Source of the DNA: a virus
DNA: 64,000 nt
Virus record (IMG/VR): IMGVR_UViG_3300013958_000126
Coordinates: 1 to 64,000 of that record
Strand: one strand, 5' to 3'
Below are positions 10,369-62,538 of this stretch, one piece after another; the first letter of the stretch is position 1, and each line of letters begins with the position of its first letter. Made by a program: the position numbers and the translations under genes. The notes beneath the pieces are model-generated. The model had not been told where the DNA came from. It was given only the letters and a program-made list of their open reading frames with translations, and did not search any database.

Positions 10369-10369
10369 C

Positions 10370-12392: not shown

Positions 12393-12394
12393 TT

Positions 12395-12934
12395 TTATAC
12401 CTCCTTCATTAAATATTTCACTGGAACCTTTTTAGTCAGCCAAACTCCATTTTTAGATAAGTAAAATTTGTATCCATCTTTGTACATCTGTTCACTATTG
12501 ATAGAATAAACAACTTCTTTACCATGTCTTTTGCCGACAGCTTTGGCAGTTTCAACATCTTTTGACAAATGAACATATAAACGACTTTTAGGAATCAGTC
12601 CGTTCTGATCAATAGACGCTATATATTTCTCGCCAGTTCCATGATAAAGAATTTTAGGTGGCTCTTTCTCTTCCAGTTCTACATCTACCGGAATTGAATG
12701 TCCCTGATTCGCTCTGATCAATGTCTTGTCATCATTGAAAGAATATCGCTGCTTATTGTCAGTCCGTACAATTTCCTCTAAAAATTCTTTGTTGAATCCG
12801 GGATTGTTTTTAGCGATACCCTGAATCAGTTCTTCTACATTCGCCCAACCATGTTCATCTATAGTAATACCAATAACTTCAGGCTTATGTCTTAATATAA
12901 GACTTATATATCTACTAATACTTTGTAAATTCAT
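12395..12934 (-). CDS. kptA: RNA 2'-phosphotransferase Tpt1/KptA (NAD+-dependent)
   Basis: 179 aa; LSLILRH, RANQGHS, HGT motifs of the Tpt1 family. Confidence 0.8.
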
Positions 12935-12949
12935 TCTCTTTACTCCTCT

Positions 12950-13423
12950 TTACTCCATAAATGATGAAACATGTACAGTTACAAAATCGCTATGTGCACG
13001 AATATAATCCAAAGTTTTAACTGTATCTTCTACAATTGCAATCTGAGATGGCTTAAGTCCGAGCTTTTGTTGCAGCGTTTGAAGCACAGTAAGTTTTTCT
13101 GTCTTTTCTAAAGTGAAATAGATATTATCATCTGGCAGATCATAATTGTCTTTTATAAAAGCTCTTTTACCAGGAATTTCATTTAAAGGACTCTTTGAAC
13201 AGGTATATACTTTATTCACGCCTTTCTTCTGAATAAACTCCTGCATTAATTTGATCGGACGCACATCTTTATACGGATTCTCACCGGAAGCTACAAGTCT
13301 GTCCCATTCATCGTCAGTCATACTATGACTTAATTCAGAAAACTCATACGGAGCAAGTACTCCATCTACATCCATTACTACAATCACATCATCTTTTAAT
13401 AAATAATCTGTAATTTTACTCAT
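12950..13423 (-). CDS. HAD-superfamily phosphatase-like protein
   Basis: 157 aa; HAD motif I VVMDVDGVL. Confidence 0.5.
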   Translation of the reverse strand: MSKITDYLLKDDVIVVMDVDGVLAPYEFSELSHSMTDDEWDRLVASGENPYKDVRPIKLMQEFIQKKGVNKVYTCSKSPLNEIPGKRAFIKDNYDLPDDNIYFTLEKTEKLTVLQTLQQKLGLKPSQIAIVEDTVKTLDYIRAHSDFVTVHVSSFME

Positions 13424-14891: not shown

Positions 14892-15259
14892 TATTTTTTA
14901 TCCTCCTCTTTGTCATTTACAATTTTATCAATCTGATCTGTGATATAATCAACTACATCTTTACCAGTTTTGCCAATTGTTTGAATATTATCTGGTGTGA
15001 TTTCATTTACAACTGCCATCGTATATATTGTTTCTGTATTAGGTGTCATGATTGTAATGATAGTCATTACAACACATCCGATAATTAATTTGCTAATAGT
15101 TTTTCTAAACTTAAATGGTTCGTTATATCCGGTTAATCCAGCAAATAAAGCACACATAGCAATAACTCCGCATATTCCTGCGATCATTCCAAAAAATGTT
15201 GTTAAATTATCTGCTCTACTAGCAGAATAAATCAACCAAGGACTAATAATCGGTTTCAT
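14891..15259 (-). CDS. Membrane protein
   Basis: 122 aa, 3 predicted TM helices. Confidence 0.45.
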   Translation of the reverse strand: MKPIISPWLIYSASRADNLTTFFGMIAGICGVIAMCALFAGLTGYNEPFKFRKTISKLIIGCVVMTIITIMTPNTETIYTMAVVNEITPDNIQTIGKTGKDVVDYITDQIDKIVNDKEEDKK

Positions 15260-15272
15260 ATTTTTATCTCCC

Positions 15273-15662
15273 TTATAACTTTCCTATCAAACAGCCCCAA
15301 GTAAAAGCAATCTGAAACATATGAGTTATCTGATCTTGAATTAAATTAATTTTCTTTTTATTGGCTTTCATATCATCTACTAACATATGTATCAATAAAT
15401 TCATAACCAATAATAAAGGATTCCATTTACCGCCAATAATCATAAGCGCAATTGTTGGTGGTAACATAATCATAAATGACCAACTAAAGCTATGCATAAA
15501 CAACGCTGCTAAATAATCATATTTATATAATTTTCCTGGTGCATTCTTTTCCCACCATGATTTTTGTTTTGCAGATGCCAACCATCCTTGTAAATAATAA
15601 TCATCTACAATGTGGCAGAAAATCATTGTAAATAATATAAATATTTTATATGCAATATTCAT
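15273..15662 (-). CDS. Membrane protein (DUF3307-like)
   Basis: 129 aa hydrophobic. Confidence 0.4.
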   Translation of the reverse strand: MNIAYKIFILFTMIFCHIVDDYYLQGWLASAKQKSWWEKNAPGKLYKYDYLAALFMHSFSWSFMIMLPPTIALMIIGGKWNPLLLVMNLLIHMLVDDMKANKKKINLIQDQITHMFQIAFTWGCLIGKL

Positions 15663-16465
15663 TATCTAAACCTTTCAACCAGTTCAATCTTAGGACTTTC
15701 CAGATTTGTTAGAATCGTATCTGTCGTATAAATCTTCTCAATCAGTCCATTGTTTTTCAGAAGTTCTCCTTCATAAATAGTATTCTCACAATGAGTTATA
15801 TAAAGATAAATCTTATTTACTCCTGTTTCTTTTAGTTTCTTAGCACTATAATAAAAAGTACCACCTCTGCTGCAGATATCATCTACAATAAGGATATCTT
15901 TACCTGGCAGTTGATTAATTTCACCTGATAAATCTAAACCTTTAATTTCTCCAGTCTCCCAATCTCTATTCTTAATACCGAAAGCATATGGAAGATGTAC
16001 TGCTGAAGAATATCGCTTCATGGATCCCGCATCCGGATAAAACATCATAAGGTTATTACTCGCAATCTTCTTAACAGCATCCTCAATCATTCGATTCGGG
16101 GATTCTACATGTACTTTATTAAATAATGCGGCAGATACATCAGAATGCGGATCTAAAACTTCTACTTTTCCAAAATGTAATGAATTAATAGTCTGAGCAA
16201 AATATTTTAAAGTAAATAATTCGTTCTCATGCTTGACTCGATCCATACGTGCATCTGGGATATAAGGCATATATAAATTAGGCACTACTCTATGATCCCA
16301 ACAATATCTAGTAATATATTCAACTGCTGTTAATTCTTCCATTGATTCAAAGAACCATTCAATATTATCTCTACACCATCCTCCGATGGGTGGGATATTC
16401 TTAAATAAGAATGTCCCATCAGGATATTTGTCAAGTTTGATTTCTACACCGTTTAATTTAATCAT
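15662..16465 (-). CDS. Ribose-phosphate pyrophosphokinase family enzyme, N-terminally trimmed (Prs / Adps-like)
   Basis: 267 aa; PRPP-binding loop ILIVDDICSRGGT, PP-loop-like PDARMDR, FYPDAGSMKRY. Confidence 0.75.
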   Translation of the reverse strand: MIKLNGVEIKLDKYPDGTFLFKNIPPIGGWCRDNIEWFFESMEELTAVEYITRYCWDHRVVPNLYMPYIPDARMDRVKHENELFTLKYFAQTINSLHFGKVEVLDPHSDVSAALFNKVHVESPNRMIEDAVKKIASNNLMMFYPDAGSMKRYSSAVHLPYAFGIKNRDWETGEIKGLDLSGEINQLPGKDILIVDDICSRGGTFYYSAKKLKETGVNKIYLYITHCENTIYEGELLKNNGLIEKIYTTDTILTNLESPKIELVERFR

Positions 16466-17572
16466 TTAGTTCTCCTCACGTTCAAACAATTTTAATTTCC
16501 AGTTATCTTTGAATATTTTATGTATTTCATAAAGAGATATATTAGACTCGCAATATTCATTCATATGAGTCATAGCCAATGTCTTTCGACATGGGATTCC
16601 AGAGGTTTTTATGTCTGCTTGACATCTTTCATATAGTTCTTCAACATTTAACTTCCCATATCTCAAAGTATCCTGATGCGGATTTGGAACATTGGTTAAA
16701 TCTTTTATGTCTGGATTAATCTCTTCCTTATTACATTCAGTTGGGAACGCACCGGCTCCATGTCTAGTCATATATGTACGTGTCACATAACAAGCTTCTA
16801 TATTAATCTCATCAGTCCAATTTACAGACTTTATAATTCTTGCAGGATTTTTAATACCAGTGTTGGATGGAGTAAGATGTGGGTAATATTCAGTATTATT
16901 TTGATCTAAAAGAAGCCCCTGCCCATTTTCAAATACTATGATATCGTATCCATCAAGTAATTGATCATCATTCACGACATGTATGTGCGACATCATAAAA
17001 TCAAAATCTTCATTGTAATGGTCTTGAAGCCAAGGATTTTTGAAATGATTAAATAATTCTTCTTCCTGCTCAGATAACGTAATTCCCATGCGCTTGAACA
17101 TATTCATATAATATGACCATGACGATGAATATGAAGTAATATGTTTTTTATAGCGTTGAATTGTATTATAAATACCCATTCCACAGCTTCCGTGTTTATT
17201 ATTACCGCGGCTTTTCTCGATTATTTGATTTGCCATCATATCAAAAGGATTTGTAATCATACATTTTTCATGAACATACACATGAGGTTTCCATCCTAAT
17301 TTCTTCAACTCTTCCCATTCTTCCCTAAATACCAGAGGATTTAAAATAAAATCCTCCGGTAAATAAGTATCTGCTCCGTTTAATGTTCCAGAGCCGAAAT
17401 GGTGAAAGACATGCCGGGTTCCATCTGATTTTAATACTGTATGTCCTCTCTGAGCGCCGCCATTTGAACACACAACGATACAGTTATCTGCATTTTTAGT
17501 ATAATAATCTGTTAATTTGCCCTTACCCTCGTCACCAAAGTTTGCCCCGATGACAATTTTTATATCTTTCAT
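16466..17572 (-). CDS. Adenylosuccinate synthetase family ligase (short PurA/PurZ-like)
   Basis: 368 aa; PurA P-loop GDEGKGK, GGAQRGHT, HGSCGMGIYNT (cf. TGRGIGP) blocks; start abuts Prs-like stop. Confidence 0.65.
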   Translation of the reverse strand: MKDIKIVIGANFGDEGKGKLTDYYTKNADNCIVVCSNGGAQRGHTVLKSDGTRHVFHHFGSGTLNGADTYLPEDFILNPLVFREEWEELKKLGWKPHVYVHEKCMITNPFDMMANQIIEKSRGNNKHGSCGMGIYNTIQRYKKHITSYSSSWSYYMNMFKRMGITLSEQEEELFNHFKNPWLQDHYNEDFDFMMSHIHVVNDDQLLDGYDIIVFENGQGLLLDQNNTEYYPHLTPSNTGIKNPARIIKSVNWTDEINIEACYVTRTYMTRHGAGAFPTECNKEEINPDIKDLTNVPNPHQDTLRYGKLNVEELYERCQADIKTSGIPCRKTLAMTHMNEYCESNISLYEIHKIFKDNWKLKLFEREEN

Positions 17573-17581
17573 ATATTCTCC

Positions 17582-18478
17582 TTACCAAACAATAGCTCCT
17601 GATTCATCTGTCTTTGCCTGAACTAATGGTGTTACTTCTGGGATGTTGTTGCTTTCATTTGCAGAAGTAATAATTTCTACAATTGTATCTGTAATATCAT
17701 CAAGTTTATTAATTGTACAAAAATGCTTATCATCAAGATATTCTAAAAATGATTTTTTAATTTGCTCTTGGTCATACCCACCACGATGATTTACATTAAT
17801 ATGATAGATATCAAATTTCTCAGCAGTTTCTGTATACAAGTCTTTTGTTTCTACATCAGCCTGAAGTGAATCTCCTGTAGCATTTGATAAGCCACAATAA
17901 TATGCTGTCCTTGGAAGATAAGGATTAAGTCTCTCATCACCAATTGTGATAATTATTCCTTTTTTACCTCTATTCCAACAATCAAGCTTTGTATGTCTGG
18001 CACCAAAATACCATGCAGCAGTGTAAGATTCATAAGAATTACCACCACCACCAAACTCAAAATAAACTTTCTCAAGCTGTTCTGCAATTCGAATATCGGA
18101 TTCAAACTGAGATGCCTGTATTGGAAACCTATCATATGACAAATCGCCAATACCCATTACCATAAATTCAATATCTTCAACTTGTTCATATAATTTCGTC
18201 ATAATATTATTAAGTTTTTTAGATATTTCAACAGCTGCCTGCCCCATAGATCCGGTAACATCTAAAGCTAAAATAACTGGAACTGTATTTGGATGTTCTT
18301 TACTATCACAACATTCTCTTACGACATTTTTAGGATTGAGTGATGAATCAAGTTCTTTTGATTTAAACATTTCCTGATTAGAATAGCTTTTTGTGACTAC
18401 TCCTCGTGAATCAGTGTCATATCCTCTTGTTGTTGCATAATTTACAAAACTTGCCGTTGTCCAACTTCCGCTTCCCAT
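17582..18478 (-). CDS. von Willebrand factor A (vWA) domain protein
   Basis: 298 aa; MIDAS motif DVTGSM. Confidence 0.6.
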   Translation of the reverse strand: MGSGSWTTASFVNYATTRGYDTDSRGVVTKSYSNQEMFKSKELDSSLNPKNVVRECCDSKEHPNTVPVILALDVTGSMGQAAVEISKKLNNIMTKLYEQVEDIEFMVMGIGDLSYDRFPIQASQFESDIRIAEQLEKVYFEFGGGGNSYESYTAAWYFGARHTKLDCWNRGKKGIIITIGDERLNPYLPRTAYYCGLSNATGDSLQADVETKDLYTETAEKFDIYHINVNHRGGYDQEQIKKSFLEYLDDKHFCTINKLDDITDTIVEIITSANESNNIPEVTPLVQAKTDESGAIVW

Positions 18479-18480
18479 AA

Positions 18481-19113
18481 TTATTCATCCTCCTCTAAAT
18501 CATCTTCACTATCTTCTGTGTCTGTATCATCCATGCTAAAATCAAACATACCGTCAAATACATCACCAATACCACCATTCATCATCATAAATGGCATCAT
18601 AGCACTCATTGGATTACTGTCTGTTCCAGTTCCGGTACCGGCCGCTCCATTCATCATCTGGGACATCATCATATATTTAAAGATTTTATTTGCACTATTC
18701 TTATCTTTTCCAAGATTACTTCCAAACATAGATACAATTTTTCCATAGAAATAAGTATTTCCCATAAATACATGGCGCTCCGGCAGAATTGTTTCAACTG
18801 TAGAATCTTCATAATTGATTACAGTGATCTTTGTTTTATCTGCTTCGATGACGCACTTAGGTTTGCCATTTACAAGGATGATGTCTCCTTTAGCCACCTT
18901 ATTTGTTGGAATGACGAAGAAAAAGTTTTCATCTACTCCTGGGAATACAAAATTTCCACAGTTTGTGAGCTTACCGGATTTAACATTGTAACTCTTATAT
19001 CCATTAGAGGTTTTTACTGCGATATTACCACTCATAGATAACTTACACATTCCACTACCAATTTTTCCAAACATTCCATTCATAAAATTATTCATCATTT
19101 TAATTCCCTCCAT
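18481..19113 (-). CDS. Hypothetical Met-rich protein with poly-acidic C-terminus
   Basis: 210 aa; MMxxMM low-complexity segment, DTDTEDSEDDLEEDE tail. Confidence 0.45.
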   Translation of the reverse strand: MEGIKMMNNFMNGMFGKIGSGMCKLSMSGNIAVKTSNGYKSYNVKSGKLTNCGNFVFPGVDENFFFVIPTNKVAKGDIILVNGKPKCVIEADKTKITVINYEDSTVETILPERHVFMGNTYFYGKIVSMFGSNLGKDKNSANKIFKYMMMSQMMNGAAGTGTGTDSNPMSAMMPFMMMNGGIGDVFDGMFDFSMDDTDTEDSEDDLEEDE

Positions 19114-19121
19114 TGTTTAAT

Positions 19122-19784
19122 TTAATTTCTATTGATTACATTAATCTGGCAGCTTTCCATTACATCAAGAGCCGCTTTATGCTTTTCCGGTGTTGATCCT
19201 GCGCAGCATGATGCATCAACTGTGATTTTTGCCTCTGGATAATAAGTTTTAATCAAAAGAGCGTTCGTAATAACACAGATATCTGTGCATATGCCAATAA
19301 TTTCAATATCTAATAAAGAACCATCTGTAGTATTAAATATTTCTTCCCAATCCCAGTCATCAAATCCAAAAGTAGATTTACAACATACCATAAAACTATC
19401 GAGATTTTTATAATCAAGTTCATCAACAATTTCCCAACCTTTAGTACCATACATACAATGTTCAGGAAGTTTTCTGCCCTCTGAAGTATCTGCGTAATCT
19501 GAATGATGAGTATCCTTTGTAAGAATTACATTGTTCTTATTATTCTTATATTCATCAAATTTCTTTTTCACATTTGGTACAATAGCTTGTGCTTCCGGTG
19601 TTCCAAGAACTCCTGTCACAAAATCATTCTGCACATCAATTACAATCAGAACTTTCTTCTTCTCTTTTTTCATTTTTATTCTCCCATTCTTTAATTTGCT
19701 GTGCTCCATCTTCAACTTGCTGCTTATCATGTCTTGAATAGTTATCTGCTGGACCATAAGCACCTTTATGTCGATATGAGGCAT
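19122..19784 (-). CDS. Isochorismatase-family hydrolase (nicotinamidase PncA-like); true start probably internal Met (MKKEKKK, ~19673)
   Basis: VLIVIDVQNDF, catalytic Cys context GICTDICV. Confidence 0.6.
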   Translation of the reverse strand: MPHIDIKVLMVQQITIQDMISSKLKMEHSKLKNGRIKMKKEKKKVLIVIDVQNDFVTGVLGTPEAQAIVPNVKKKFDEYKNNKNNVILTKDTHHSDYADTSEGRKLPEHCMYGTKGWEIVDELDYKNLDSFMVCCKSTFGFDDWDWEEIFNTTDGSLLDIEIIGICTDICVITNALLIKTYYPEAKITVDASCCAGSTPEKHKAALDVMESCQINVINRN

Positions 19785-29210: not shown

Positions 29211-29230
29211 AAGTTAATTTAATTTGTTTT
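29211..29230 (-). promoter_or_regulatory. Instance of long variant of the motif (sense AAAACAAATTAAATTAACTT), overlapping stop of 29219-29992
   Basis: Identical 20-mer also at 46754-46773 and 56842-56861. Confidence 0.4.
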
Positions 29231-29992
29231 ATTTTTTAAAAGTTCATTTACGAATGTTTTCATAGGTTCTCTCATATTAACATTTTCATGTAGCCACTCC
29301 AGATACTCAGGATCTGTCTTTGCAACATCTGTCAGTAATTCATCCTTATGCTTTTTGTATGGACATTTGTATGTCTCAATATCCGGTAAATCATATGCAT
29401 CAGTATCATCTTTAAAAGAAATATCAATGTCTTTTCTGGAAGCCAAATAATCTGCTACATGTACAATTTTCCCTAACTGTGATTTTGGCTTTGGTAATAC
29501 AATACTTTCTCTATCACTTGTGTTCCATTGTCCCATATGAGACGAAACAGCATCAGCAATAATCTCAAGTTCATCATCTTCGAGATATAATCCTTTATAA
29601 TTACGAATATATTCTGCTGCCAACAACGGATGATTAAATACAGTAAACACCTTTTTTCCATCCTTTGCCTTTTCTTCATATATTTCTGCAGTACCAGACT
29701 TTTGAATATCATGTGCCAAACAAGCAACACGTCCAAGATCTATCCATCTCTCATCAAACTGATTCTGGTACTGTTCTAATCCGATGATATAATTGTAAAT
29801 CCTTAATACTGCTTTTGTATGACGCATTAAACCGCCATCACCCAGCGCGTATGCCGGGTGATATTTACCTGTAGAACTTGCCGCAACTTTGAAAAAATAG
29901 TCTGGGGCATCGTCCAAAACAACTTTTGCAAAATCACGAATATCATCTGAAGTAATTGTTTTTAATTCGTTTTTAAATAATTCTGACTTCAT
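29219..29992 (-). CDS. HD-domain phosphohydrolase
   Basis: 257 aa; H ... HD ... D metal-binding pattern (GKYHPAYA, CLAHDIQK). Confidence 0.65.
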   Translation of the reverse strand: MKSELFKNELKTITSDDIRDFAKVVLDDAPDYFFKVAASSTGKYHPAYALGDGGLMRHTKAVLRIYNYIIGLEQYQNQFDERWIDLGRVACLAHDIQKSGTAEIYEEKAKDGKKVFTVFNHPLLAAEYIRNYKGLYLEDDELEIIADAVSSHMGQWNTSDRESIVLPKPKSQLGKIVHVADYLASRKDIDISFKDDTDAYDLPDIETYKCPYKKHKDELLTDVAKTDPEYLEWLHENVNMREPMKTFVNELLKNKTN

Positions 29993-47397: not shown

Positions 47398-48744
47398 TTA
47401 CTCAATGATCTTAAATGATACATCAGTACGTCTATTCATTGCGCGATGTTCATCAGTATCATTATCAACAACAGGATTGCTGGATCCATTTCCAACTACT
47501 ACAATACGTCCGTTAGAAATTCCATTCATAACAAAATAGTTTTTAACAGCTTCTGCTCTTTGTAAAGACAACTTCTGATTATACTCGTCTTCAGGATCTG
47601 ATTCCGGATTAGGGTCTGTATTTCCTGCAATTTCAATTATTGCACCGTCAAGTACCTTTGCAATGTCAATAAACTTATTAAGTTCTTTAGATGCTGCAGC
47701 AGAATCAGAGAATTTTGCCGTATTCTGAATAAATGTAACAGATGCTTTACCCTGTAATAAAGCTTCAGTATCCTGAATTTCCTTTTTATTATCCTCTGTA
47801 ACCTTTACAGTATTTGTATTAGACACTTCCGTTGCACTAAATTTATCTGAAATAGCATTAATATATGTATCATCAAAAATACTATTAACAAGATCAGCAT
47901 TTACAGACTCACCAATTGATGTCCATACGTTACACATATCTGAATAAATTGTCTTTGCAGTTCCATTTAACAGATCTAAATTATCTTTCCATGTTGTCAG
48001 TTTTGCAGACTCCGTATTTGCTACAATATCTTCATCTGATGCAGTATTAAACATAGGCATTACTTCACGAATTGCATTAAATTCTGTATTATACATATCT
48101 GCAGCTTCCAGAGATCCCTGGATAAATTTCTCCACTACATCTGCATGTGCTTCTGCAAATTTCTTATCAAACAGAATTCCATCCATAACAAGATTTGAAG
48201 AACTTGCAGTGCTAAATAATACATGTGCGTCTGTCATATTCTTTGCCTGAGTCAGGTATGGTTCCCAGGTTGCTGCAACATCAATCTGACCGGCAAAAAA
48301 TGCTTTTGCTGCATCATCTGGTGTTGAAAATAATACAAGATTATCAATAATTTTCGCTTTCTTCTTGGCTGAAAGATCAGAATTATTTACAAACCATACT
48401 ACAAGTGTTTGAGCTTCAGAAAATTCTGGTACACCAATTTTAGCATTTACAAGATCATTTACATTCTGAATAGAAGACTTCGCAATAATACCGTCGCCAC
48501 CATTTGAGTAATTTGTAATATACGGCATCACCACTTCTTTTCCAGCATCAGTGAATTTCTTAGATAAGAATGCAGTTCTGTTAATTGTATAACCTGCAGC
48601 GTTCAGATCTCCTTTAATCAGAGCATTACTTGATTGTGTTGCGTCGTTAATAACATTAATATTTACTTTTACGCCAAGTTTATCATAGATGGAACCTGAC
48701 TGAGTTGTTAAGCCGCCATTAGCGTCAATAATGGATTTCCACAT
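47398..48744 (-). CDS. Substrate-binding protein (NMT1/SsuA/TauA family) fused to C-terminal OmpA-like peptidoglycan-binding domain; lacks signal peptide
   Basis: 448 aa; SBP fold over ~340 aa, then OmpA-C block LSLQRAEAVKNYF...NRRTDVSF. Confidence 0.55.
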   Translation of the reverse strand: MWKSIIDANGGLTTQSGSIYDKLGVKVNINVINDATQSSNALIKGDLNAAGYTINRTAFLSKKFTDAGKEVVMPYITNYSNGGDGIIAKSSIQNVNDLVNAKIGVPEFSEAQTLVVWFVNNSDLSAKKKAKIIDNLVLFSTPDDAAKAFFAGQIDVAATWEPYLTQAKNMTDAHVLFSTASSSNLVMDGILFDKKFAEAHADVVEKFIQGSLEAADMYNTEFNAIREVMPMFNTASDEDIVANTESAKLTTWKDNLDLLNGTAKTIYSDMCNVWTSIGESVNADLVNSIFDDTYINAISDKFSATEVSNTNTVKVTEDNKKEIQDTEALLQGKASVTFIQNTAKFSDSAAASKELNKFIDIAKVLDGAIIEIAGNTDPNPESDPEDEYNQKLSLQRAEAVKNYFVMNGISNGRIVVVGNGSSNPVVDNDTDEHRAMNRRTDVSFKIIE

Positions 48745-48746
48745 TA

Positions 48747-49595
48747 CTATTGATTCAGTTCGTTACGCTGAACTGTTGATTTCCGTATAGGATATTTTAT
48801 ATTTGGATTATGCCAACTGCCACCATTATTAATTCTATAAATCTGAGTAACAGCTCGACCATATAATTTAGCAATATACTTCATAGGAATGCTAGGATCT
48901 TCTAACAATTTAATAATTTCTTCTAATTCATCATGAGTTAATCCTAATTCTCTGATAGGATATTCATCGTTTTCATCATAATATGTAACACCTTTATTAA
49001 TGTTTAAAATTACATATCTTTCTACTTTAAACATTCTAGCAATATAGTCTATACTATAAAAGCCATCTCGTAACATTTTTTTGATTAATTTAATTTTTTC
49101 ATGATTTATAGATGGACATATTAAAGGTTCTCTGATAGGATAAGTGATATCATTTTTTCTCCAAGCTATTCCGGTATTAACATTTCGAATAGTTTTTATT
49201 GATACATTATACTTTTCGGCAAGCTTATCAAATTCAACGTTCGTTTCTTTTAAATCTTTCATCAATAAATCAACCTGCTGTTGTGTTAACTTACTTTGCG
49301 GATTATTTTCTCCAGAACTATCTTGCCCACCATTTTGAATATTATATCCGAACTCTTTCTCATTACTGCGATATAATTTAATATATTCCTTTTCTTTTGT
49401 ATTATAATCTTCTCCGAAATATAATGTTTCTACCGAAAAATTTTCCCATCCATATTTATGTATTGCATTATAGATAGGATGATTCATGCGTTTATCATGC
49501 CGATGCTCTTTAATACATCTTTCTAAATTATTAGTTTGTCCTATATAAATCTTATGATTTATGTTATTCTCTATTTTGTATACATATTTCTCCAA
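48747..49595 (-). CDS. GIY-YIG homing endonuclease
   Basis: 282 aa; N-terminal YVYKIENNINHKIYIGQT (GIY...YIG), C-terminal repeated NUMOD-like DNA-binding modules (YPIREL repeats). Confidence 0.8.
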   Translation of the reverse strand: MEKYVYKIENNINHKIYIGQTNNLERCIKEHRHDKRMNHPIYNAIHKYGWENFSVETLYFGEDYNTKEKEYIKLYRSNEKEFGYNIQNGGQDSSGENNPQSKLTQQQVDLLMKDLKETNVEFDKLAEKYNVSIKTIRNVNTGIAWRKNDITYPIREPLICPSINHEKIKLIKKMLRDGFYSIDYIARMFKVERYVILNINKGVTYYDENDEYPIRELGLTHDELEEIIKLLEDPSIPMKYIAKLYGRAVTQIYRINNGGSWHNPNIKYPIRKSTVQRNELNQ

Positions 49596-49976
49596 TTCTT
49601 TATATTCTCCTTACACGTTACAACACTATATTTTTCAATATAGATTAGAGTACATCACCATCTTTTATAAGATGCGCCTCCACTGGCTTTAACGAATTTA
49701 AAAGCTCTTACTCGTTGAACCTTATCCTGTTCGGATTTTGGAAGCTGATTCCCCATTCTTACAGCACTTAGCACCTTCTCATATTTCAATGAAAAAGCTT
49801 TTATTTCAGCTTATGCCATCTTACTAATTTTTTCTGCTTTCGCCACATTCACACTTATGCGTATTTCATCATTATGTTGTAGTTTAGTAAGCTTTAGGGT
49901 GGCTACGTGTATAGCCTTAATTCCAGCAATTCAAAGGCGTTCGATCACATTGTCACCAATGTAAAAGGGCTAGAAA

Positions 49977-50264
49977 TTAACCAATCCATTCATCTAATGA
50001 CACATTAATAACATTATCATCAGCAGTTTTCGCTTCATCTTTCTTTACAGTGTTTTTCTTGTCATCATCCTCATTATTTGAAGTAGATTCTGTTTTAGCG
50101 ACTGTTTCTGATGTAGTAGTACCGGATACTGATTTATCTTTCTTCGTCTGAATCATTCCGGTCTGTGTTCCTGCAAAGATACCTCCTCCAAGCAGTGCTA
50201 CAATCAGAACCATAATCAGAATTTTTGCTGCTTTAGTTAATCTAAATCTTTTTGCTTTCTTCAT
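49977..50264 (-). CDS. Small membrane-anchored protein (possible upstream exon / N-terminal part of the split SBP gene)
   Basis: 95 aa; N-terminal signal-anchor helix then Ser/Thr/Asp/Lys-rich linker. Confidence 0.4.
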   Translation of the reverse strand: MKKAKRFRLTKAAKILIMVLIVALLGGGIFAGTQTGMIQTKKDKSVSGTTTSETVAKTESTSNNEDDDKKNTVKKDEAKTADDNVINVSLDEWIG

Positions 50265-50275
50265 TTTACTACTCC

Positions 50276-51013
50276 TTATTTATTATATTTCTTTTTCAAG
50301 CTGTTCAGATAATCATTGCTGTTATTCTTTTTTGCTTCCGCTTCAGCCTTTTCAAGTTTGGTAGACATCTTATTATTGTGTACTACTTTAGATCCTTCCA
50401 CAATAGCATCCAGATCTCTGTTTTTATCTCGAACAGAATCAAGCAATTTATCTGTTGCCGTGACATTTTTCAATTCATCCATATCATCATAGACTTCCTG
50501 AAGCTGCTTCTTTACTTTCATATTCTCCACAACTTCTTTGCTCTCACGCTTCAGACTTCTCAGATTCTTTTCACATCTTTCCTGCGTCTCTTTTGCTGCG
50601 TCTGTAGCTTCTTTATAAGCATTTACCAATCCAGTAACTCTGCGAATATCTGAAAGAATCTCTTCTCTTTCCTCTGCCTTTAACTGTGCAAGCTCGATCT
50701 GATTAGTTTTAACCAGAGATTCACACTCTGCTTCAACATTAACAAGTCGCTTTCTTTTTCTATCAAGATCTTTCTGCGCATTGCTCAGTTTTCCAGCAGC
50801 AATCTTATATGCATTATCCGCTTTATTATAAGATTCCTGAGCCTGGTCAATTTTTTCTTCGTAGATAGCCTCTGCGCCTTCTGGTGTGGTTGCCATATCT
50901 TTGATAAATAATCTAGTAAATCCAGACAGTAATTTTCTTGCTTCCGGAAACAAGATCAGTATCAATACAATAACAACCACTGCAACAATAAAAATCAGTT
51001 TACCAAGTTCCAT
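50276..51013 (-). CDS. PspA/IM30-like coiled-coil protein with N-terminal TM helix
   Basis: 245 aa; PspA-like N-terminal amphipathic block and heptad-rich remainder. Confidence 0.4.
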   Translation of the reverse strand: MELGKLIFIVAVVVIVLILILFPEARKLLSGFTRLFIKDMATTPEGAEAIYEEKIDQAQESYNKADNAYKIAAGKLSNAQKDLDRKRKRLVNVEAECESLVKTNQIELAQLKAEEREEILSDIRRVTGLVNAYKEATDAAKETQERCEKNLRSLKRESKEVVENMKVKKQLQEVYDDMDELKNVTATDKLLDSVRDKNRDLDAIVEGSKVVHNNKMSTKLEKAEAEAKKNNSNDYLNSLKKKYNK

Positions 51014-51546
51014 TATGCATTTCCTCCAATAGTAAAGTTAATTAAATTTTTGATTCTATCAATTTCAGTAGTAATAGTTTCATCAGATGTTTTTGTTTCA
51101 GCCCTTTGATCAGCAATCTCCTTTTCCAAACGCTCGATTTCCATTTTGTGTTCTTCAATAGCATTTTCTTTTTTAGTAACAACAGCTTCAGAATCACAAA
51201 TAATCTTTGAGAGAATGTCGCTTAAAACATCAACTCTTTTTTCTCCGTCTGCCTCAACATCAGTCACTGTCAAGCCAAATACACCAAGTGTTGCCAACAC
51301 TGAATTTCTTTTTGTTTCTGTCGTCATTTCCTTTGGAAATGATTTTATTAACTCCTCCACTTTAAAAATTGACTGTGTTTTATCTGCCAGATTATTCTGG
51401 CTGTAAATATCATCAATCAAAGTGTCAGTGTTAACTGAATCAAGCTCTGCGTTGGTCTCGGTTGTATCAAAATCAGTATCTATGTCTGGAATATCAGGCG
51501 TCTCATCCGGTACTTCTTCCACAAATAAGTTTTTTAAAATTCCCAT
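51013..51546 (-). CDS. Hypothetical acidic coiled-coil protein
   Basis: 177-aa ORF, stop overlaps next start (ATAATG). Confidence 0.45.
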   Translation of the reverse strand: MGILKNLFVEEVPDETPDIPDIDTDFDTTETNAELDSVNTDTLIDDIYSQNNLADKTQSIFKVEELIKSFPKEMTTETKRNSVLATLGVFGLTVTDVEADGEKRVDVLSDILSKIICDSEAVVTKKENAIEEHKMEIERLEKEIADQRAETKTSDETITTEIDRIKNLINFTIGGNA

Positions 51547-51558
51547 AGTATTTCCTTC

Positions 51559-52170
51559 CTAAAATTTCAATATTTCATCACACATTATCTTTGCTTCTGA
51601 TTCACTGTGTGTGACCATGATCACAGTATTATCAAGTAACCTATGCAAATCCATAATTAACAATTGCATATTACTTCGTGTCTCAGCATCCAGCGCTGAC
51701 AACGGTTCATCCATTAAAAGAATCTTTGGTTTTGCAAATAACGTCCTTGCTAACGCAAGTCGCTGTTTCATGCCTCCAGATAACTGCTTAGGATATTTAT
51801 TTTCGTTTCCATTCAAACCAACTAAATAAAGCATCTTCTTAGCTGCTTCTATATCTTCTGGTTCTACATGGCCTTTAACTTTTTTAGCAATTAGTATATT
51901 GTCAAGACAATTTAACCAATCAAAAGAAGTATAGTTCTGATGCATCATATATACTTCATTTTTACTTGCTTTTGTAACCGGAGTATTATCTATGATAATT
52001 TCTCCAGATAACGGTTTGATTAATCCTGCAACCGTCCTTAACAAAGTTGTCTTGCCGCATCCAGATTCTCCAAGGATCCCGTAGATCTTATTATCAAAAT
52101 TATAATTAAACCCAGATAAAAGTGGTTTATCTCTGCTGTATCCTGTGTATAAATCATGAATTTTAATCAT
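51559..52170 (-). CDS. ABC transporter ATP-binding protein (short SsuB/TauB-like)
   Basis: 203 aa; Walker [10 protein letters not shown], signature [13 protein letters not shown], Walker [12 protein letters not shown]. Confidence 0.8.
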
Positions 52171-52909
52171 TTATATACCTCCACTTAAAAATCTTCTTTA
52201 CTAACCATTTAGATACATAATCAAATATAACACTGATGATCATAATCACAATGATTGCCATAAATACTAAATCTGTTCTCCCTCTGGAAGATGATTGCTG
52301 GATTATATATCCAAGTCCATATTGAGCATTTATTGTTTCAGCTACTGCAATATATGTAAATCCAATTCCATACATCATAATGTAGCTATTTAATACTCCT
52401 GGCAATGATGCCGGAATCTGGATTCTCCATATCGTTTGTAATTTGCTCATTCCAATTGTAAGTCCGGTATCTATTAGATCGTTGTTCACTTCCTCCAGGC
52501 ATAATACAACTGACGGCATCATATATACGAATGTTGCGATAAACAAAAATACAATTTTCATCATTTCATCTATCCCGAACCACATAATAAGCAATGGATA
52601 AAATGCAGTCACCGGAATATATCGCATGACACTGATCATCGGATTAAGAATATCCTTAGCAATTCTGGAATTATAAACCAGAATCGCTATAGGAAATGCT
52701 ATTGCTCCAGATATAAATGTAGCAGCAGTTATTCTTAGAAACGAATATTCAATTGCCTTAATCAACTGTCCTGTATGTATCATGCCTATCAGATCATCAA
52801 ATACCGTAACTGGTTCCGGAATGAACAAGGGATTTACGTGTTTTGCTGTGATATCCCAAATAAGGAGTATCGAAGCAAGTAAAAGAATTCTTTTTGTAAA
52901 TGTTTTCAT
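52163..52909 (-). CDS. ABC transporter permease (SsuC/TauC-like)
   Basis: 248 aa, 6 TM helices, binding-protein-dependent transport signature region. Confidence 0.7.
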
Positions 52910-53504: not shown

Positions 53505-53999
53505 TTATTTAACAAACATCCAGTCTTCTGCGAGCATATCCGACTGGGTAGCAAGCCATCCCATCTGTACGCCAGATGTTCCAACAAAAGCGATGGCTTT
53601 ATTTCCGATTGCGTCATGCTCACAATTTACAATCTCATTATCGGCAGTCTTATAAGAAATCCCAGTGGCAAGCTGAATGTACTGTTTCTTTCCATTCCAG
53701 CCTTTACGTGCCACTTTAAATCCTCTTTTCAGGTACTTAATCGCTTCTCCGAATGAGAATGTTGCTTCTCCACCAAGTATTGGGCAGTTCCGACTATCCG
53801 AATAAACCCACTCATCGGAAAGAATATTCTGAAGCGTATACTCCACATTCTGTGTTTCTCTTATATCCAGACAGCCGCCATCTTTTGTGTACATAAGGAT
53901 TGTCTGGGATTCTTCATCCCACCACCAATAACCCGCCCATGACGGAAGTTTTACTGGAATTCCAGATTTCATTTCTTCAAATGCTTCTTTAAATTTCAT
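53505..53999 (-). CDS. Tandem DUF2829-like protein (candidate Tad2-type small-molecule sponge)
   Basis: 164 aa; two internal repeats each resembling the DUF2829 pattern (FxEA...MK.G..V.R.GWNGK ... GWLATQSDMLAEDW). Confidence 0.4.
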   Translation of the reverse strand: MKFKEAFEEMKSGIPVKLPSWAGYWWWDEESQTILMYTKDGGCLDIRETQNVEYTLQNILSDEWVYSDSRNCPILGGEATFSFGEAIKYLKRGFKVARKGWNGKKQYIQLATGISYKTADNEIVNCEHDAIGNKAIAFVGTSGVQMGWLATQSDMLAEDWMFVK

Positions 54000-54032
54000 A
54001 ACTTTCTCCCTTCTTTGTTTAATTAAATTGTA

Positions 54033-56102
54033 TTAGAATTTGATTTTTAATACTCGCTCTGTAGCACCCTTTACCTTAATAATCAAATCATTTCTCTTTG
54101 TAAGGGAGAATCCTACTCCAGAAAGCTGATCATCAATATCTTTTACATGTGCCTTCGCTCCAAGCGCTTCAAATACTCTTCGATGCTGCTCAAGTTCCGG
54201 TTTCAAGAATTCATTATAATATCCATTCGGCTCTTCTGGATTGATGCAGTCCTTCAGCATAAAGAATAAGTGCTGATGACCAATTCCCTTCTGTTCATCC
54301 CAGTAATTTGGTGAGTAGCATACAACTGATACCGGTGTAAACTGCAAGGTTTTAATTCCCCAGACATCTTTACTGATTGTTGCACAATTTCCTGGAAGTT
54401 TGTCCACTACTTTGAAATTTCCTGACTGATCAAGTATTACTTCTGCAACATCTACATTGCCACGTACTGGAGCATTGTATTCGTAAGAATGAATTTCTCC
54501 ATTTACTTCAATTTCAGCTTTAAATCCCTGAGATCCTCTGTATGCGAACTGATTTACAAAAAACTTATATGTACCAGGAATCATATACTCTTTAGATGGA
54601 TATGTAATATTTTCAACAGCCACTCCATTACTTGCTCTACACTGATCAACTGGCTGAGTAATATCAATGTCCAATTCTCCTCTAGTACGTAGTGATTTTC
54701 TACAACCAAAATAAATATGCTCTCCACCTTTTGGTTCAATACAATGTGCGTCAAGATCAGAATTATCCTTTCCATCTTTGTCATTCCATTGAATAGAAAA
54801 TCTTACAATGCCTGTGACTGAACCACCAGCAGCTTTTACATTTTCTTTGATATCTGAATCTGTAATATTACCGGTATACGCCCAAGACATTCCATTGTTC
54901 CATTTGAACATTGTTTTCGCATCAGCAACTTCTGGAGCAATCAAAGATACCATATTTTGAATATGTTTATTCTCCAGGTATACTTCCAGTTCCTTTGCCA
55001 CTGGCAAAACATTCTTAATGAAATCTTCTGCACTTATTTCCTCTACCTTAGAGAATCGTTTTGGATCAATTGCAACATCCTGTTCCATTTCATCAAACAA
55101 ATCCATAGCGCCGGTAATTCTCTTTGCTGCGTCTTTATTAGAGAAAAGTATATTGTTCACTGTGATATCATCCAAGGTAGCAAATCTTCTCTGTAATGAA
55201 TCCATATAACCAAGTTCTGTAATAGTCTTCTTTGCATCTTCAAGCATCTTCTTTGTAAAAATTGCCTTTGGACGTTTATAATTTACAGGGGCTACAATCT
55301 GCTCATATTTTCTAACGGCAAGGTCAAGATCCATTCCTTCGGAAATATTTACCAGCAATGTTCCAATACTATGGTTACGAATCTTACCGATAACGGCACC
55401 TGCAGCAATTGACTTTTCCCAGATCCAAAGTTCTTTCTGTTCATCCGTAAGCTTTCCATATTCTTTCTGATAATTCTTAAATTCAGTAAGTTGCTTTTTC
55501 CATTCGGCACCTTTATATAAAGAATTTTGAGCAATCAGTTCAAGTACAGTATCTACAGCTTCTTTACTAATTTCATCAAGAGAACGTTTAAATACATTAC
55601 GGACATCTCTGAATTGACTTAAATCACCTTCAAGTGTATGTCCATAACATTCCTTAAAGATACAAATTTCTGGCAGATCTACGAAGAAATGCTCGTATTT
55701 ATTAATTTTTCCTGTCGGGAGCATTTCTCTATTTTCAGGAGTACCAATTCGTTTCTCTTTTTTGAGGAATACCCCTAATACCGCTTTCTGTTTTACATAG
55801 GCATCAAGCGCAGCTGCGACTACATTATATTTATCATCTGATACTGGATTAATTCCCCAAATGGTATGTAACTCACCATTTTTAATAGATACAACGTTAC
55901 CAACGTCTCTGATAAAATGTCTACAGCAACTACAGTCATATTCTCTTCTTTCTCTGTAAATTTCATTTGTACCTGCCGGAAACGAATCCAGATATAAATT
56001 ATAAAGCTCCTCGGTATCCACATTTACTGTGAATAATCTTGAAGAATCTTTAGACATCTGCTGTAAATTTTTCTGGATTGCCTTTACAAAATCTTTAAAC
56101 AT
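54033..56102 (-). CDS. Large hypothetical protein
   Basis: 689 aa; N-terminal YDCSCCRHF cysteine cluster. Confidence 0.5.
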   Translation of the reverse strand: MFKDFVKAIQKNLQQMSKDSSRLFTVNVDTEELYNLYLDSFPAGTNEIYRERREYDCSCCRHFIRDVGNVVSIKNGELHTIWGINPVSDDKYNVVAAALDAYVKQKAVLGVFLKKEKRIGTPENREMLPTGKINKYEHFFVDLPEICIFKECYGHTLEGDLSQFRDVRNVFKRSLDEISKEAVDTVLELIAQNSLYKGAEWKKQLTEFKNYQKEYGKLTDEQKELWIWEKSIAAGAVIGKIRNHSIGTLLVNISEGMDLDLAVRKYEQIVAPVNYKRPKAIFTKKMLEDAKKTITELGYMDSLQRRFATLDDITVNNILFSNKDAAKRITGAMDLFDEMEQDVAIDPKRFSKVEEISAEDFIKNVLPVAKELEVYLENKHIQNMVSLIAPEVADAKTMFKWNNGMSWAYTGNITDSDIKENVKAAGGSVTGIVRFSIQWNDKDGKDNSDLDAHCIEPKGGEHIYFGCRKSLRTRGELDIDITQPVDQCRASNGVAVENITYPSKEYMIPGTYKFFVNQFAYRGSQGFKAEIEVNGEIHSYEYNAPVRGNVDVAEVILDQSGNFKVVDKLPGNCATISKDVWGIKTLQFTPVSVVCYSPNYWDEQKGIGHQHLFFMLKDCINPEEPNGYYNEFLKPELEQHRRVFEALGAKAHVKDIDDQLSGVGFSLTKRNDLIIKVKGATERVLKIKF

Positions 56103-59278: not shown

Positions 59279-60190
59279 CTATATTAAATAGTCACCATAT
59301 TTTTTAAGAAAATATGAAGGTCTATTAATCTTAATTCCATATTGGTGTTCAATCATAGACCGAGTTTCAACATCATATAAAATCTTGTTTTTATTTGAAT
59401 TATACTTCCGGATTAATTCATTTGTCATATGAATTTGTCCGGAAATGTTAATTTTTTCAGCAGTCATATATGATACATCTATAGACTTCAATGCTGCTGC
59501 TAATGAATTATACATTTGCCTTCCAAGACAATGCGGATCATCTTTTACAATATGAGATCTTTTTATAATGGTTCCATCATCCATGAGTTTGGATTTAGTT
59601 CCATATGGATATGTTAATTCCATTGTCATATTACTCTTTTGTGCAGTTAAAATTAATGCTTCACTTACATTTACAACTCTTCCGGAATACAATTTCATTG
59701 TATGATTTTCTACGTCGATATCATCAAGTTTTGCTCTAATCGTGTCTTCAAAATCTTTAGACTTGCCATATTCAAAAATGCTCAGAATCATGAATCGATC
59801 TCTAGGATTCTTTAATGCTTCGATCCATGTTAAAATCGTGTCTCTTGATACAATCTGATGATTTAACAATGTCTTATTTAATAGTGCTGCCAGCATATCA
59901 GGTGTGATAGTTGCATAGATATTTTGTCCATTTAACACTAAATTCTCATTAACACACCAGTCCGTATATTGTGTAAGAGTATTATTTACTACAATAATGG
60001 ACTCTAATGTTGTAAATTTGAACAACTTATACATTTCTGTAATCTCATTTAAATTAAAGTCACATAAATCCTTTTGATACATATGTTCAAACGGCGCAAC
60101 TCTCTTAAATCTAGGCACAAGAGGAGTAACGCTTGCAACAGTTTTTAACTTAAATTCGTAAAACCTTTGTTTTCTATCTTCGTTATACAT
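59279..60190 (-). CDS. Hypothetical protein
   Basis: 303-aa ORF. Confidence 0.45.
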   Translation of the reverse strand: MYNEDRKQRFYEFKLKTVASVTPLVPRFKRVAPFEHMYQKDLCDFNLNEITEMYKLFKFTTLESIIVVNNTLTQYTDWCVNENLVLNGQNIYATITPDMLAALLNKTLLNHQIVSRDTILTWIEALKNPRDRFMILSIFEYGKSKDFEDTIRAKLDDIDVENHTMKLYSGRVVNVSEALILTAQKSNMTMELTYPYGTKSKLMDDGTIIKRSHIVKDDPHCLGRQMYNSLAAALKSIDVSYMTAEKINISGQIHMTNELIRKYNSNKNKILYDVETRSMIEHQYGIKINRPSYFLKKYGDYLI

Positions 60191-61471
60191 TTACATTCTC
60201 TCCTCTAAAAAAGGAATTAATCTTTTCCTTATCCTATTAAAGTTTCTCGAAAAATCATATATTATTTTTTCCTCACGTTCCGCATCATCAATAAGAAAAC
60301 GCTTATAGTTCTCTATCATTGATATTTTATTTTTTCCATCATAATAATGAAACAAGATCGTAAGAATTATAATTTCTTTCTTTGAATATTCTTTTTCAAG
60401 ATACTTGTCATCTTCTTCTGTAAGCATATTAAGATCTTCGATAAATTCCTTTGATACTCTAATGATTTCTTTTCGTTGCTCAGGAGAATCACTTTGCCTT
60501 TTACTGAAATATAATCTCTTAATACATTCTGCCAGGGTTGTTGAATCAATAAGTCCACCTATTTTTATTTTCCCTTGCAAATTACACATACTGCTTTCAT
60601 TAATACGCTGGACCACTTTATTTTGAGCTGCATATGAGTTATATGTGTCGCTTAACTGTTTGCTCATTTTAGTTTTCTGGTCATACTGATATATCATACG
60701 GCGAGATTTATCAATGTCAAAGTTTGTAATTCTCAGCTCCATTGGATAGTTAAAATTTGGATTTTTACTTCTGGCCTGGAACATTGATACATATCTATGA
60801 TATCCATCGTTTATATCAAATGCCTCTAAAGAATGAATAATAAGCTGACGTGATTGCTCATCATAATGAAAATCTGCGTATATATCATCTTTCGGGATAT
60901 TCAAAGTGATTGTATCCGGAACATAAATATGTTCCAACATATCTGCCGTAATTTCTTTTACTGCACTCTTATTCAATGTAATACGATATAGCTCATTATT
61001 ATCTCGTGTTACTTTAGTCATAGCACGTTGTGTGACAGGATTATAGTTAATTAATCCTGATTCTTGCAGAGCGCAAAATGCATCTACATTTAAAGATCCT
61101 ATCCATTGATCATCGCTTACCTGAATCATATTGAATACTAACGGGAATTCAATTTTATTTGGTTCTTCGTATCGCATCCCACTATATTTACTTATTTCTC
61201 TGTCTGTAAAAAAGTCAGATAACTTTTTGCGATAATCTTTCTTAGTGGCATTTAAAATACTATCTGCAATTACAAAAAGTGTATAATCATTTGCTTCTTC
61301 AATACTCTTTCTACTAGATAGAAAATCTGAAAAAATGCCTTTTGGATAATTATATTTCTCATATGCATAATTGTAAATTTCTAGTTCTTCACTCTTATTA
61401 ATTAAGATATTAAAAAACTTTTTGGATAAATAATCTTCTAAAATACTTCTATCGACATTCATTTTTCTCAC
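60191..61471 (-). CDS. Hypothetical protein with DGQHR-like (ParB/sulfiredoxin-fold, DndB-like) motif
   Basis: 426 aa; motif INDGYHRYVSM resembles DGQHR signature. Confidence 0.3.
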   Translation of the reverse strand: MRKMNVDRSILEDYLSKKFFNILINKSEELEIYNYAYEKYNYPKGIFSDFLSSRKSIEEANDYTLFVIADSILNATKKDYRKKLSDFFTDREISKYSGMRYEEPNKIEFPLVFNMIQVSDDQWIGSLNVDAFCALQESGLINYNPVTQRAMTKVTRDNNELYRITLNKSAVKEITADMLEHIYVPDTITLNIPKDDIYADFHYDEQSRQLIIHSLEAFDINDGYHRYVSMFQARSKNPNFNYPMELRITNFDIDKSRRMIYQYDQKTKMSKQLSDTYNSYAAQNKVVQRINESSMCNLQGKIKIGGLIDSTTLAECIKRLYFSKRQSDSPEQRKEIIRVSKEFIEDLNMLTEEDDKYLEKEYSKKEIIILTILFHYYDGKNKISMIENYKRFLIDDAEREEKIIYDFSRNFNRIRKRLIPFLEERM

Positions 61472-61509
61472 CTCTTTCCTCAGATTATATCACGCAAAGT
61501 TAATTTTGT

Positions 61510-62538
61510 CTATATTTTTGATGATAAATTTTTCGACATGAACTCCGTTGCTTCCTTTCTTGAGTTATTTTCTTCAACTGTATAAATACTGGTTGTCTGT
61601 ATATCCGCATGCCCTACAGCATTTTTCGTAGCAACGATATCTTTTGTCTCCTTATAATATAATGAAGCAAAAGCAGCTCTTAACTTATGCGGAGACACAT
61701 GTTTACCAATTCCTTTCTCGGCATATTTGACTACCATACAATAGATCGTTTGTGGATCCATACGTTTTCCATTTTTTGATATAAAAAGAGCATCCTCTTT
61801 AATCCCCATATTATATAGTATTTTATCTCGATCAAGGATCCAATCTCTTAATACACGTATGGAATCATCATTTAATTGATATACCTGTTCTTTATCTCGC
61901 TTGTCGATAATAGTCAAATTGTGAGTCTCAAAATTTAAATCACTTAAGTTAATTTCGCTTAATGCAGTTTTTCTCATGCCGGTAACCATAAATAAATATA
62001 ATATAGCATAATCTCTTGAATGCCATTCTTTTGGCATGTAAGAATATTTTACGGCACCCAATATTCCATTTAAATCATCCATTGATAAAAACACTCTTTT
62101 AATCGAGTCTTTTCTAATAGGCCGGTTTACATTGTCCATCGGATTCCTTTCAATATCTCCTCTCCGATACAAAAAATCAAAAAACCTATTTAATGTGCAA
62201 CATACCAATTTAGTATATGCCACAGACGACTTTTTAATTTCACCATTACCATCTTTTACGTATTTAATATGCTCCAGATACCTTGCGATATCATCTGCGT
62301 CAATTTCGCTTATATCTTCTACATCTATATAATCTAAGAAATGATGAAGTTTTCTGACATAATTTAAACAAGTATTCGGGCTGCGAACAGCCTGAATACT
62401 CATATAAAAATCACTCACGCATTGTGGCATATCATTAAGAATTTTCTTAACATTCTTATTTAATTTTAATTCATGCTCCAACCTTCCATTCATAACTTCA
62501 TTCTCCTCTCTAACATAATTCCAGCTTGTTGATACCAT
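61510..62538 (-). CDS. Tyrosine recombinase (XerC/D-like, second recombinase in the element)
   Basis: 342 aa; HKLRAAFAS and GHADIQTTSIYT catalytic blocks. Confidence 0.75.
   Translation of the reverse strand: MVSTSWNYVREENEVMNGRLEHELKLNKNVKKILNDMPQCVSDFYMSIQAVRSPNTCLNYVRKLHHFLDYIDVEDISEIDADDIARYLEHIKYVKDGNGEIKKSSVAYTKLVCCTLNRFFDFLYRRGDIERNPMDNVNRPIRKDSIKRVFLSMDDLNGILGAVKYSYMPKEWHSRDYAILYLFMVTGMRKTALSEINLSDLNFETHNLTIIDKRDKEQVYQLNDDSIRVLRDWILDRDKILYNMGIKEDALFISKNGKRMDPQTIYCMVVKYAEKGIGKHVSPHKLRAAFASLYYKETKDIVATKNAVGHADIQTTSIYTVEENNSRKEATEFMSKNLSSKI

Follow-up and report, generated by a model that had tools for sequence, protein, structure and literature searches.

The 164-aa protein studied here, encoded in a 64,000-nt stretch of viral DNA (the window), is composed of two Tad2 folds joined by a conserved linker of about 12 residues. 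The two folds form an old and strongly asymmetric pair, with a canonical Tad2/DUF2829 domain in the C-terminal half and a diverged version of the same fold in the N-terminal half. We consider it somewhat better than an even bet that the protein is a Tad2-family phage anti-defence sponge in which two different Tad2 folds are covalently joined, and its most likely function would be the sequestration of TIR-derived ADPR signals produced by type I Thoeris. The oligomer state, ligand binding and immune evasion ascribed to the protein below are predictions. In the literature that we searched, every sponge is a short homo-oligomer whose inter-protomer pockets are symmetric; a widespread family with two diverged folds per chain would show how phages get around this constraint, and it could lead to an unrecognized ligand specificity or signal in bacteria that are abundant in the human gut.

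The gene is part of a long array of genes on the same strand. Its start lies 33 nt beyond the stop of the upstream 689-aa gene, and its own stop is followed after 6 nt by the start of the next gene; the coordinates of these and other features are collected in Table 1. A scan for promoters and terminators around the gene gave no signal above shuffled expectation. Protein searches recovered 6117 homologs and 3400 cluster representatives at 50% identity, and the relatives found in 80 genome loci share 35–86% identity with the query. The gene is genuine and evolves under selection. A megablast search with the 3.3-kb neighbourhood returned no match among 50,697 GenBank phages, so no annotated relative from that set could be used.

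Table 1. Positions in the window of the two-domain Tad2-like gene, its parts and the other genes discussed.
Feature	Position	Strand	Remarks
Fe-only hydrogenase, host	106-1794		
NuoF-like subunit, host	1810-3687		
Tyrosine integrase	4607-5815		
NadE	9607-10368	-	
Tpt1/KptA	12395-12934	-	
NAMPT-like gene	13416-14891	-	phrog_448
Prs-like gene	15662-16465	-	phrog_619
Adenylosuccinate-synthetase homolog, 368 aa	16466-17572	-	phrog_1211 '2-aminooxy adenylosuccinate synthetase', E = 3e-88
Isochorismatase-family gene, possibly nicotinamidase	19122-19784	-	
HD-domain protein	29219-29992	-	
NMT1-like substrate-binding domain fused to OmpA	47398-48744	-	
ABC ATPase	51559-52170	-	
ABC permease	52163-52909	-	
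Complete ORF, two-domain Tad2-like protein	53505..53999	-	ATG to stop, 164 aa plus stop codon; from the ORF list
Canonical Tad2/DUF2829 domain, aa 81-164	53508..53759	-	GWNGK at aa 100-104; GWLATQSDMLAEDW at aa 147-160
Conserved linker, aa 69-80	53760..53795	-	...N71-C-P-I-L75-G-G77...
N-type domain, aa 1-68, cryptic diverged Tad2 fold	53796..53999	-	
Shine-Dalgarno AAGGGAGA, strong ribosome-binding site	54005..54012	-	5 nt before the ATG, read from sequence
689-aa protein, gene directly upstream	54033-56102	-	phrog_1735, E = 4e-264; precomputed Pfam DUF8224, local Pfam no match
MrpR-type tyrosine-recombinase-like gene	59279-60190	-	
DndB-like gene	60191-61471	-	
Phage_integrase, tyrosine-recombinase-like	61510-62538	-	

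The first-pass annotation had placed the protein in the DUF2829 family, and this assignment was borne out. The whole protein matches PF11195, currently named 'Tad2-like domain' and earlier DUF2829, with E = 8.3e-24 (84.4 bits against a cut-off of 25; best stretch aa 82–163), and the C half alone is still recognized with E = 8.6e-22 (77.9 bits). A search of the full protein against PDB sequences returned Tad2-family entries exclusively (E = 4e-12 to 3.5e-9, all within aa 75–163): AcrIIA7 (9kzr), HgmTad2 (8kbi), MoTad2 (9eib/8v3e), SPO1 Tad2 (8sme/8wje) and SptTad2 (8wjd), with AcrIIA7 as the top match (9kzr_A, E = 3.8e-12). The full-length AlphaFold2 model (pLDDT 88.4, pTM only 0.63) retrieved 24 Tad2 chains in Foldseek at E ~1e-6, with a TMt of up to 0.80 and ~30% identity, a level of identity that we attribute to the C-domain. 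The elements of the Tad2 fold are present: a helix at the N-terminus, an antiparallel sheet, and a helix at the C-terminus that ends in (D/E)W. The C-terminal half is thus a clear Tad2/DUF2829 domain and an ordinary member of a well-known family, and close relatives are already publicly labelled 'DUF2829 domain-containing protein'.

The N-terminal half is less obvious. It reads F.EAF..MKSG..VKLPSWAGYW ... YTLQNILSDEW, and its signature comprises W21-x-G23-Y24-W25, R47, Y54-T55, N58, D62 and W64. Taken alone, it gave nothing against PF11195 at E <= 10 and no Tad2 among PDB sequences, where only chance matches at E > 0.4 were returned; HMM-based family membership is therefore limited to the C-domain. 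A two-sequence BLASTP search of the N against the C half aligned 8/21 identical residues with E = 0.003. Since the direct tests of the N half were negative, profile and fold comparisons were needed. Profiles of the two domains, built from the query and 24 diverse two-domain homologs (25 sequences), aligned in hhalign end to end over 68 columns with a probability of 95–96%, P = 2.6e-9 to 9.8e-9 and 22% identity. A separate model of aa 1–70 reached a pLDDT of 95.7 and a pTM of 0.82, and its top three PDB matches in Foldseek were all SPO1 Tad2 (E = 6e-3 to 3.5e-2, TMq 0.69–0.74), with all remaining PDB matches at E > 0.6. Together, the profile alignment and the predicted structure identify aa 1–68 as a diverged Tad2 fold. 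In the linker, conservation of 90% or more is seen at N71, L75 and G77 (alignment A1), and the block-averaged pLDDT is 83–91.

These results change the picture of two ~80-aa repeats that had been drawn at first from the sequence. Two units of ~70–85 aa with the same fold are indeed present, but the quoted pattern, GWNGK followed by GWLATQSDMLAEDW, is confined to the second (aa 81–164), the N half having neither GWNGK nor WLATQSD and carrying changed pocket residues. Likewise, a PF11195 match for each repeat was obtained for the C half but not for the N half. The joint lack of an HMM match and a Tad2-like structure, which had been named as evidence against the assignment, is clearly not what we see. 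The idea of a fused dimer, on the other hand, has to be given up in favor of an ancient asymmetric Tad2 pair in place of a fused homodimer. A recent internal duplication was also ruled out, the halves being only ~22% identical in the profile alignment.

The N–C architecture is found in 59 of the 150 best cluster representatives, others among these 150 being single C-domains with unrelated N-terminal modules, and the N-type domain occurs on at least 588 IMG/VR contigs. A few canonical Tad2–Tad2 tandems (P0158, P0269) and triples with the order C-N-C (P0144) or N-N-C (P0147) were also recovered. In 77/80 IMG/VR loci, a near-complete C-domain comes after the N-type domain within one ORF, with one contig end and two truncations within the C-domain accounting for the remaining three, and 79/80 matches in the genome loci extend to residue 162 or beyond. 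A stand-alone N-type domain was found in none of the 80 IMG/VR and 80 genome loci. The carriers are Clostridia (Blautia, Coprococcus, Eubacterium, Dorea, Oscillospiraceae, Clostridium and Paraclostridium), with the closest relatives, at 83–86% identity, in Blautia and Hominiventricola. The architecture is common in Clostridia prophages, many of them of Lachnospiraceae and Oscillospiraceae, and the family corresponds to phrog_1048, which the protein matches end to end (E = 1.1e-62, residues 1–164 against positions 31–195 of the 211-position profile).

Conservation is higher in the non-canonical half. Mean pairwise identity is 49% for the N-domain versus 33% for the C-domain, and the N-domain is the more conserved one in 277/300 protein pairs, which suggests that it has a function of its own. 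Among 89 representatives (80% identity clusters), R47, Y54, T55 and N58 are kept in 84–88; these four residues lie outside the search pattern, whereas W21, G23, Y24 and W25 were part of the pattern used to find many of the loci, and their invariance is partly built in. The canonical W-N-W-D quartet of the C-pocket is kept in 66/89 representatives and varied in 23/89, and R47, Y54, T55 and N58 are kept equally well in both groups. The literature that we searched contains no description of a tandem or double Tad2/DUF2829 protein, only fusions to unrelated sponge families; a second Tad2 fold missed by Pfam, its obligate fusion to a C-domain and its conservation above that of the canonical half go beyond this literature. 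One consequence is that PF11195-based censuses under-count Tad2 folds.

The C-domain relatives are also fused to many N-terminal modules (P0137, P0229, P0220, P0242, P0243, P0189, P0158, P0269, P0144 and P0147 being among the examples). In P0220, P0242, P0243 and P0189, the module ('YIGTKxIxAEP…SWSPKxVFEEAY') is one that we take by eye, with PF13876 in mind, to be of the Acb4 type. Some other C-domain relatives carry an unassigned beta module with 'KKPVIIEA…GDYIITGVNGE'. By the fusion logic of an earlier study (10.1101/2025.07.12.664507), fusion partners that we could not assign are candidate new sponge modules.

We next compared the residues that contact ligands in characterized Tad2 proteins. 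SPO1 Tad2 contacts 3'cADPR through W25, N26, W73 and D79, together with S76, T78, I63, T65, D67 and H71 (10.1101/2023.05.01.538930). The contacts of HgmTad2 are W21, N22, G23, W87, L88, S90, T92 and D93, and its W21A/N22A and S90A/T92A/D93A mutants lose binding (10.1101/2023.11.15.567273). The equivalent C-domain residues are W101, N102, G103, W148, L149, T151, S153 and D154, which indicates that the primary gcADPR contacts are preserved, apart from a conservative exchange of S and T. The secondary or water-mediated SPO1 contacts T65, D67 and H71 map, from the sequences, to G140, S142 and M146 and are not retained, which counts against a sponge; the same positions are variable among active Tad2 homologs too. 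The N-domain does not have the gcADPR contact set. Its equivalent residues are W21, A22, G23, Y54, T55 and N58, and the changes in its pocket are N to A (G in most relatives), W to Y and D to N. Its net charge of −6 (family mean −3.9) also counts against the sponge reading, an acidic domain being unusual for a nucleotide pocket, and domain net charge proved to have no discriminating value.

The two motifs lie 42 residues apart in the C-domain and 28 apart in the N-domain, as compared to 43 in SPO1 Tad2 and 61 in HgmTad2. In HgmTad2 and SptTad2, the cyclic-dinucleotide pocket is formed by an insertion of 35–41 residues between beta2 and beta5, and the short-spaced SPO1 Tad2 does not bind cyclic dinucleotides (10.1101/2023.11.15.567273). 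Since this insertion is absent from both halves, inhibition of CBASS by the HgmTad2 route is not predicted, and the dinucleotide binding that the first-pass annotation had included in its proposal is not supported in that form.

Activity data for relatives come mainly from a screen of 18 Tad2 homologs of 60 to 158 aa against seven defence systems (Table S2 of 10.1101/2025.08.24.671296). All six entries with GWNGK and W[LV][AP]SQ[TA]D[MV]LA[ED]DW, that is, Tad2_70, Tad2_71, Tad2_82, Tad2_83 and the SPO1 and HgmTad2 controls, inhibit type I Thoeris in that study; all six are single-domain homologs. The N-type motif is present in 0/18 of the tested homologs, and the sole long entry, Tad2_73, has an HgmTad2-like N-terminal extension with no N-type domain. 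Several results count against a sponge. Tad2_84 (...GWNGKNQYIELATCISYKNTNNEIINAKHNAIGNKAIAFVG), the sole tested relative in the subfamily of the C-domain, is a 60-aa truncation and was inactive (10.1101/2025.08.24.671296). One of the five Tad2 homologs of the original study did not inhibit Thoeris (10.1101/2023.05.01.538930), and several homologs in the later screen did not inhibit type I Thoeris, some of them inhibiting 0/7 systems (10.1101/2025.08.24.671296). Tad2_79, with the non-canonical LPKWS … WKETMIE, inhibits both type I and type IV Thoeris (10.1101/2025.08.24.671296), which means that non-canonical residues alone do not exclude sponge activity.

In the reading that we prefer, two or four chains would assemble via the Tad2 oligomer interfaces, and the C-domains would come together in the canonical inter-protomer pocket. 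There, the signal that TIR proteins produce in type I Thoeris-like systems would be sequestered, and with the signal trapped, the NADase effector would never be switched on. The N-domain would act as a built-in partner protomer, a re-lined fold with a near-invariant site (W21, Y24, W25, R47, Y54, T55 and N58) that is probably a second site of different specificity. A dimer of chains would contain four Tad2 folds, as in the known tetramer, and a C2-symmetric dimer would allow two pairings, one with C–C' and N–N' pockets and the other with two N–C' pockets.

A more specific version of this idea, which we put forward tentatively and consider less likely than not, is that the N-type domain is an obligate tethered Tad2 paralogue whose near-invariant site serves a different immune signal, the whole forming a pseudo-tetramer with two chemically distinct pockets. 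If true, this would release the protein from the symmetry to which every known homo-oligomeric sponge is subject, and it would suggest that a signalling molecule is widespread among gut Clostridia. Phages are known to fuse Tad2 with other sponges (Acb4, Sequestin), and such fusions to unrelated sponge families are the closest published idea to ours (10.1101/2025.07.12.664507). Like the protein described here, Acb4-Tad2 of Pasteurella phage Pm86 and Tad2-Sequestin/PF21825 carry Tad2 and a second module in one chain; however, their modules have unrelated folds and mostly also stand alone, whereas the partner here is itself a Tad2 fold and never occurs alone.

Alternatively, the N-domain may bind nothing by itself and either pair with the C-domain in half-canonical pockets or merely replace a protomer structurally; the result would be an asymmetric pocket for another ADPR-type signal (e.g., His-ADPR or N7-cADPR) instead of 3'cADPR. 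Two protomers build the Tad2 pocket, each supplying W25, N26, W73 and D79 (10.1101/2023.05.01.538930), and the conserved linker, the absence of N-type domains on their own and the activity of the non-canonical Tad2_79 against type I and type IV Thoeris fit this arrangement as well. The two halves of one pocket would, however, be expected to co-vary, and the N signature stays fixed while the C quartet varies in 23/89 representatives. Its invariance whatever the state of the C-pocket argues weakly that the sites are separate, or that the structural role of the N-domain is constant, rather than that both domains share a heterotypic pocket. We regard the alternative as a whole as rather unlikely.

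Among the known structures, SPO1 Tad2 (gp34.65; 8SME/8SMF/8SMG/8WJE) has the fold, the GWNGK and W..SQ.D.LAEDW motifs and the similarly short spacing in common with the C-domain. SPO1 Tad2 nevertheless has one domain of 89 aa and assembles as a homotetramer, while a second, diverged Tad2 fold is attached N-terminally here. HgmTad2/AcrIIA7 (8KBI-8KBM, 8WJC, 9KZR) differ by the 35–41 residue insertion, which carries the RNA-binding K93 and R101, and their N-terminal extension is a helical 'head' rather than a second Tad2 fold. MoTad2/ModTad2 (9EIB, 8V3E) bind His-ADPR and cUMP as a single-domain homotetramer and have other specificity residues than the 164-aa protein, in which we see no indication of His-ADPR or cUMP binding.

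The genomic surroundings bear on a further alternative, namely that the protein is not a sponge at all but a small-molecule- or protein-binding accessory, e.g., in virion assembly or nucleotide metabolism, the fold alone being common. The immediate neighbours are the 689-aa DUF8224/phrog_1735 protein, a phrog_2018 protein and an ABC importer, and they are conserved within the phage's own lineage only. None of the eight flanking window genes recurs near the homolog in the 80 genome loci, where the neighbour clusters are heterogeneous, so a conserved gene neighbourhood was ruled out. In many prophages, the gene lies among genes that look like head-morphogenesis genes by sequence, with no obvious early or anti-defence block, which counts against a sponge; portal-, head- and capsid-type proteins, judged in the same way, adjoin it in subsets of 9–11 prophage loci. 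PHROG families 1048 and 872 are annotated as 'unknown function', and PADLOC returned no match for the protein. Against this, the C-domain contacts are retained under selection, with W-N-W-D present in 66/89 representatives, and all PF11195 members characterized experimentally in the literature searched are anti-defence proteins. Mobile accessory genes with anti-defence roles typically have varied surroundings, and the two-domain Tad2 gene behaves like a mobile accessory gene. We consider a non-sponge role improbable.

An AcrIIA7-like anti-CRISPR activity, in which a positive groove in the oligomer core would bind tracrRNA or another structured RNA and block Cas9 RNP assembly, is highly improbable. 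In its favor, AcrIIA7 is a DUF2829/Tad2 protein and the best PDB sequence match, and three of its five RNA-binding residues (K58, K66 and K71) correspond to K91, K99 and K104 here. Against it, the long insertion that carries K93 and R101 is missing, so neither residue has an equivalent, the K/R residues in question are common to Tad2 proteins in general, AcrIIA7 is active only after removal of its N-terminal head domain (PMC13133391) while a whole extra domain precedes the core here, and its anti-CRISPR activity was not reproduced by another study.

The wider context of the window is that of an integrated element. Positions 1–4157 hold host genes, and their succession by an integrase at the left end indicates an integrated prophage with a junction at ~4.2–4.6 kb. 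Beyond this, the window has the appearance of a large prophage, and related contigs reach up to 173 kb. A cluster of NAD+-related genes spans 9607–19784 (minus strand), and the phage also encodes an NAD-dependent ligase, intact in the window at 666 aa; the initial view of a phage heavily invested in NAD+ thus holds, with NadE, Tpt1, NAMPT-like, Prs-like, isochorismatase-family and ligase genes all found. The NAMPT-like, Prs-like, NadE and nicotinamidase-like genes suggest that the prophage counters NAD+ depletion, and we presume that the NAMPT-like and Prs-like pair is similar to NARP1 (Namat + Adps), a pathway of NAD+ reconstitution. If the 164-aa protein simply binds 3'cADPR, it would be one more Tad2 beside the NAD+-salvage genes of its phage.

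Within the same region, the 368-aa adenylosuccinate-synthetase homolog looks PurZ-like, which suggests that adenine may be replaced by 2-aminoadenine (Z-DNA) in this phage, and the HD-domain protein encoded nearby might be a DatZ-like dATPase. Closer to the Tad2-like gene, the 689-aa phrog_1735 protein has a cysteine-rich N-terminus, and what appears to be a phage-encoded ABC importer (47398–52909) lies just downstream. Relatives differ in which genes appear to be interrupted by homing endonucleases. In the window, a GIY-YIG/HTH gene (48747–49595) interrupts the region 47398–49595 (minus strand), whose uninterrupted counterpart is a single 532-aa OmpA-domain gene in two related contigs, L002 (13736–15334) and L004; in a third, L001 (5723–6283), an HNH/NUMOD4 gene splits the NAD-dependent ligase. 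Finally, two tyrosine-recombinase-like genes surround the DndB-like gene (59279–62538), an arrangement that is kept in related contigs.
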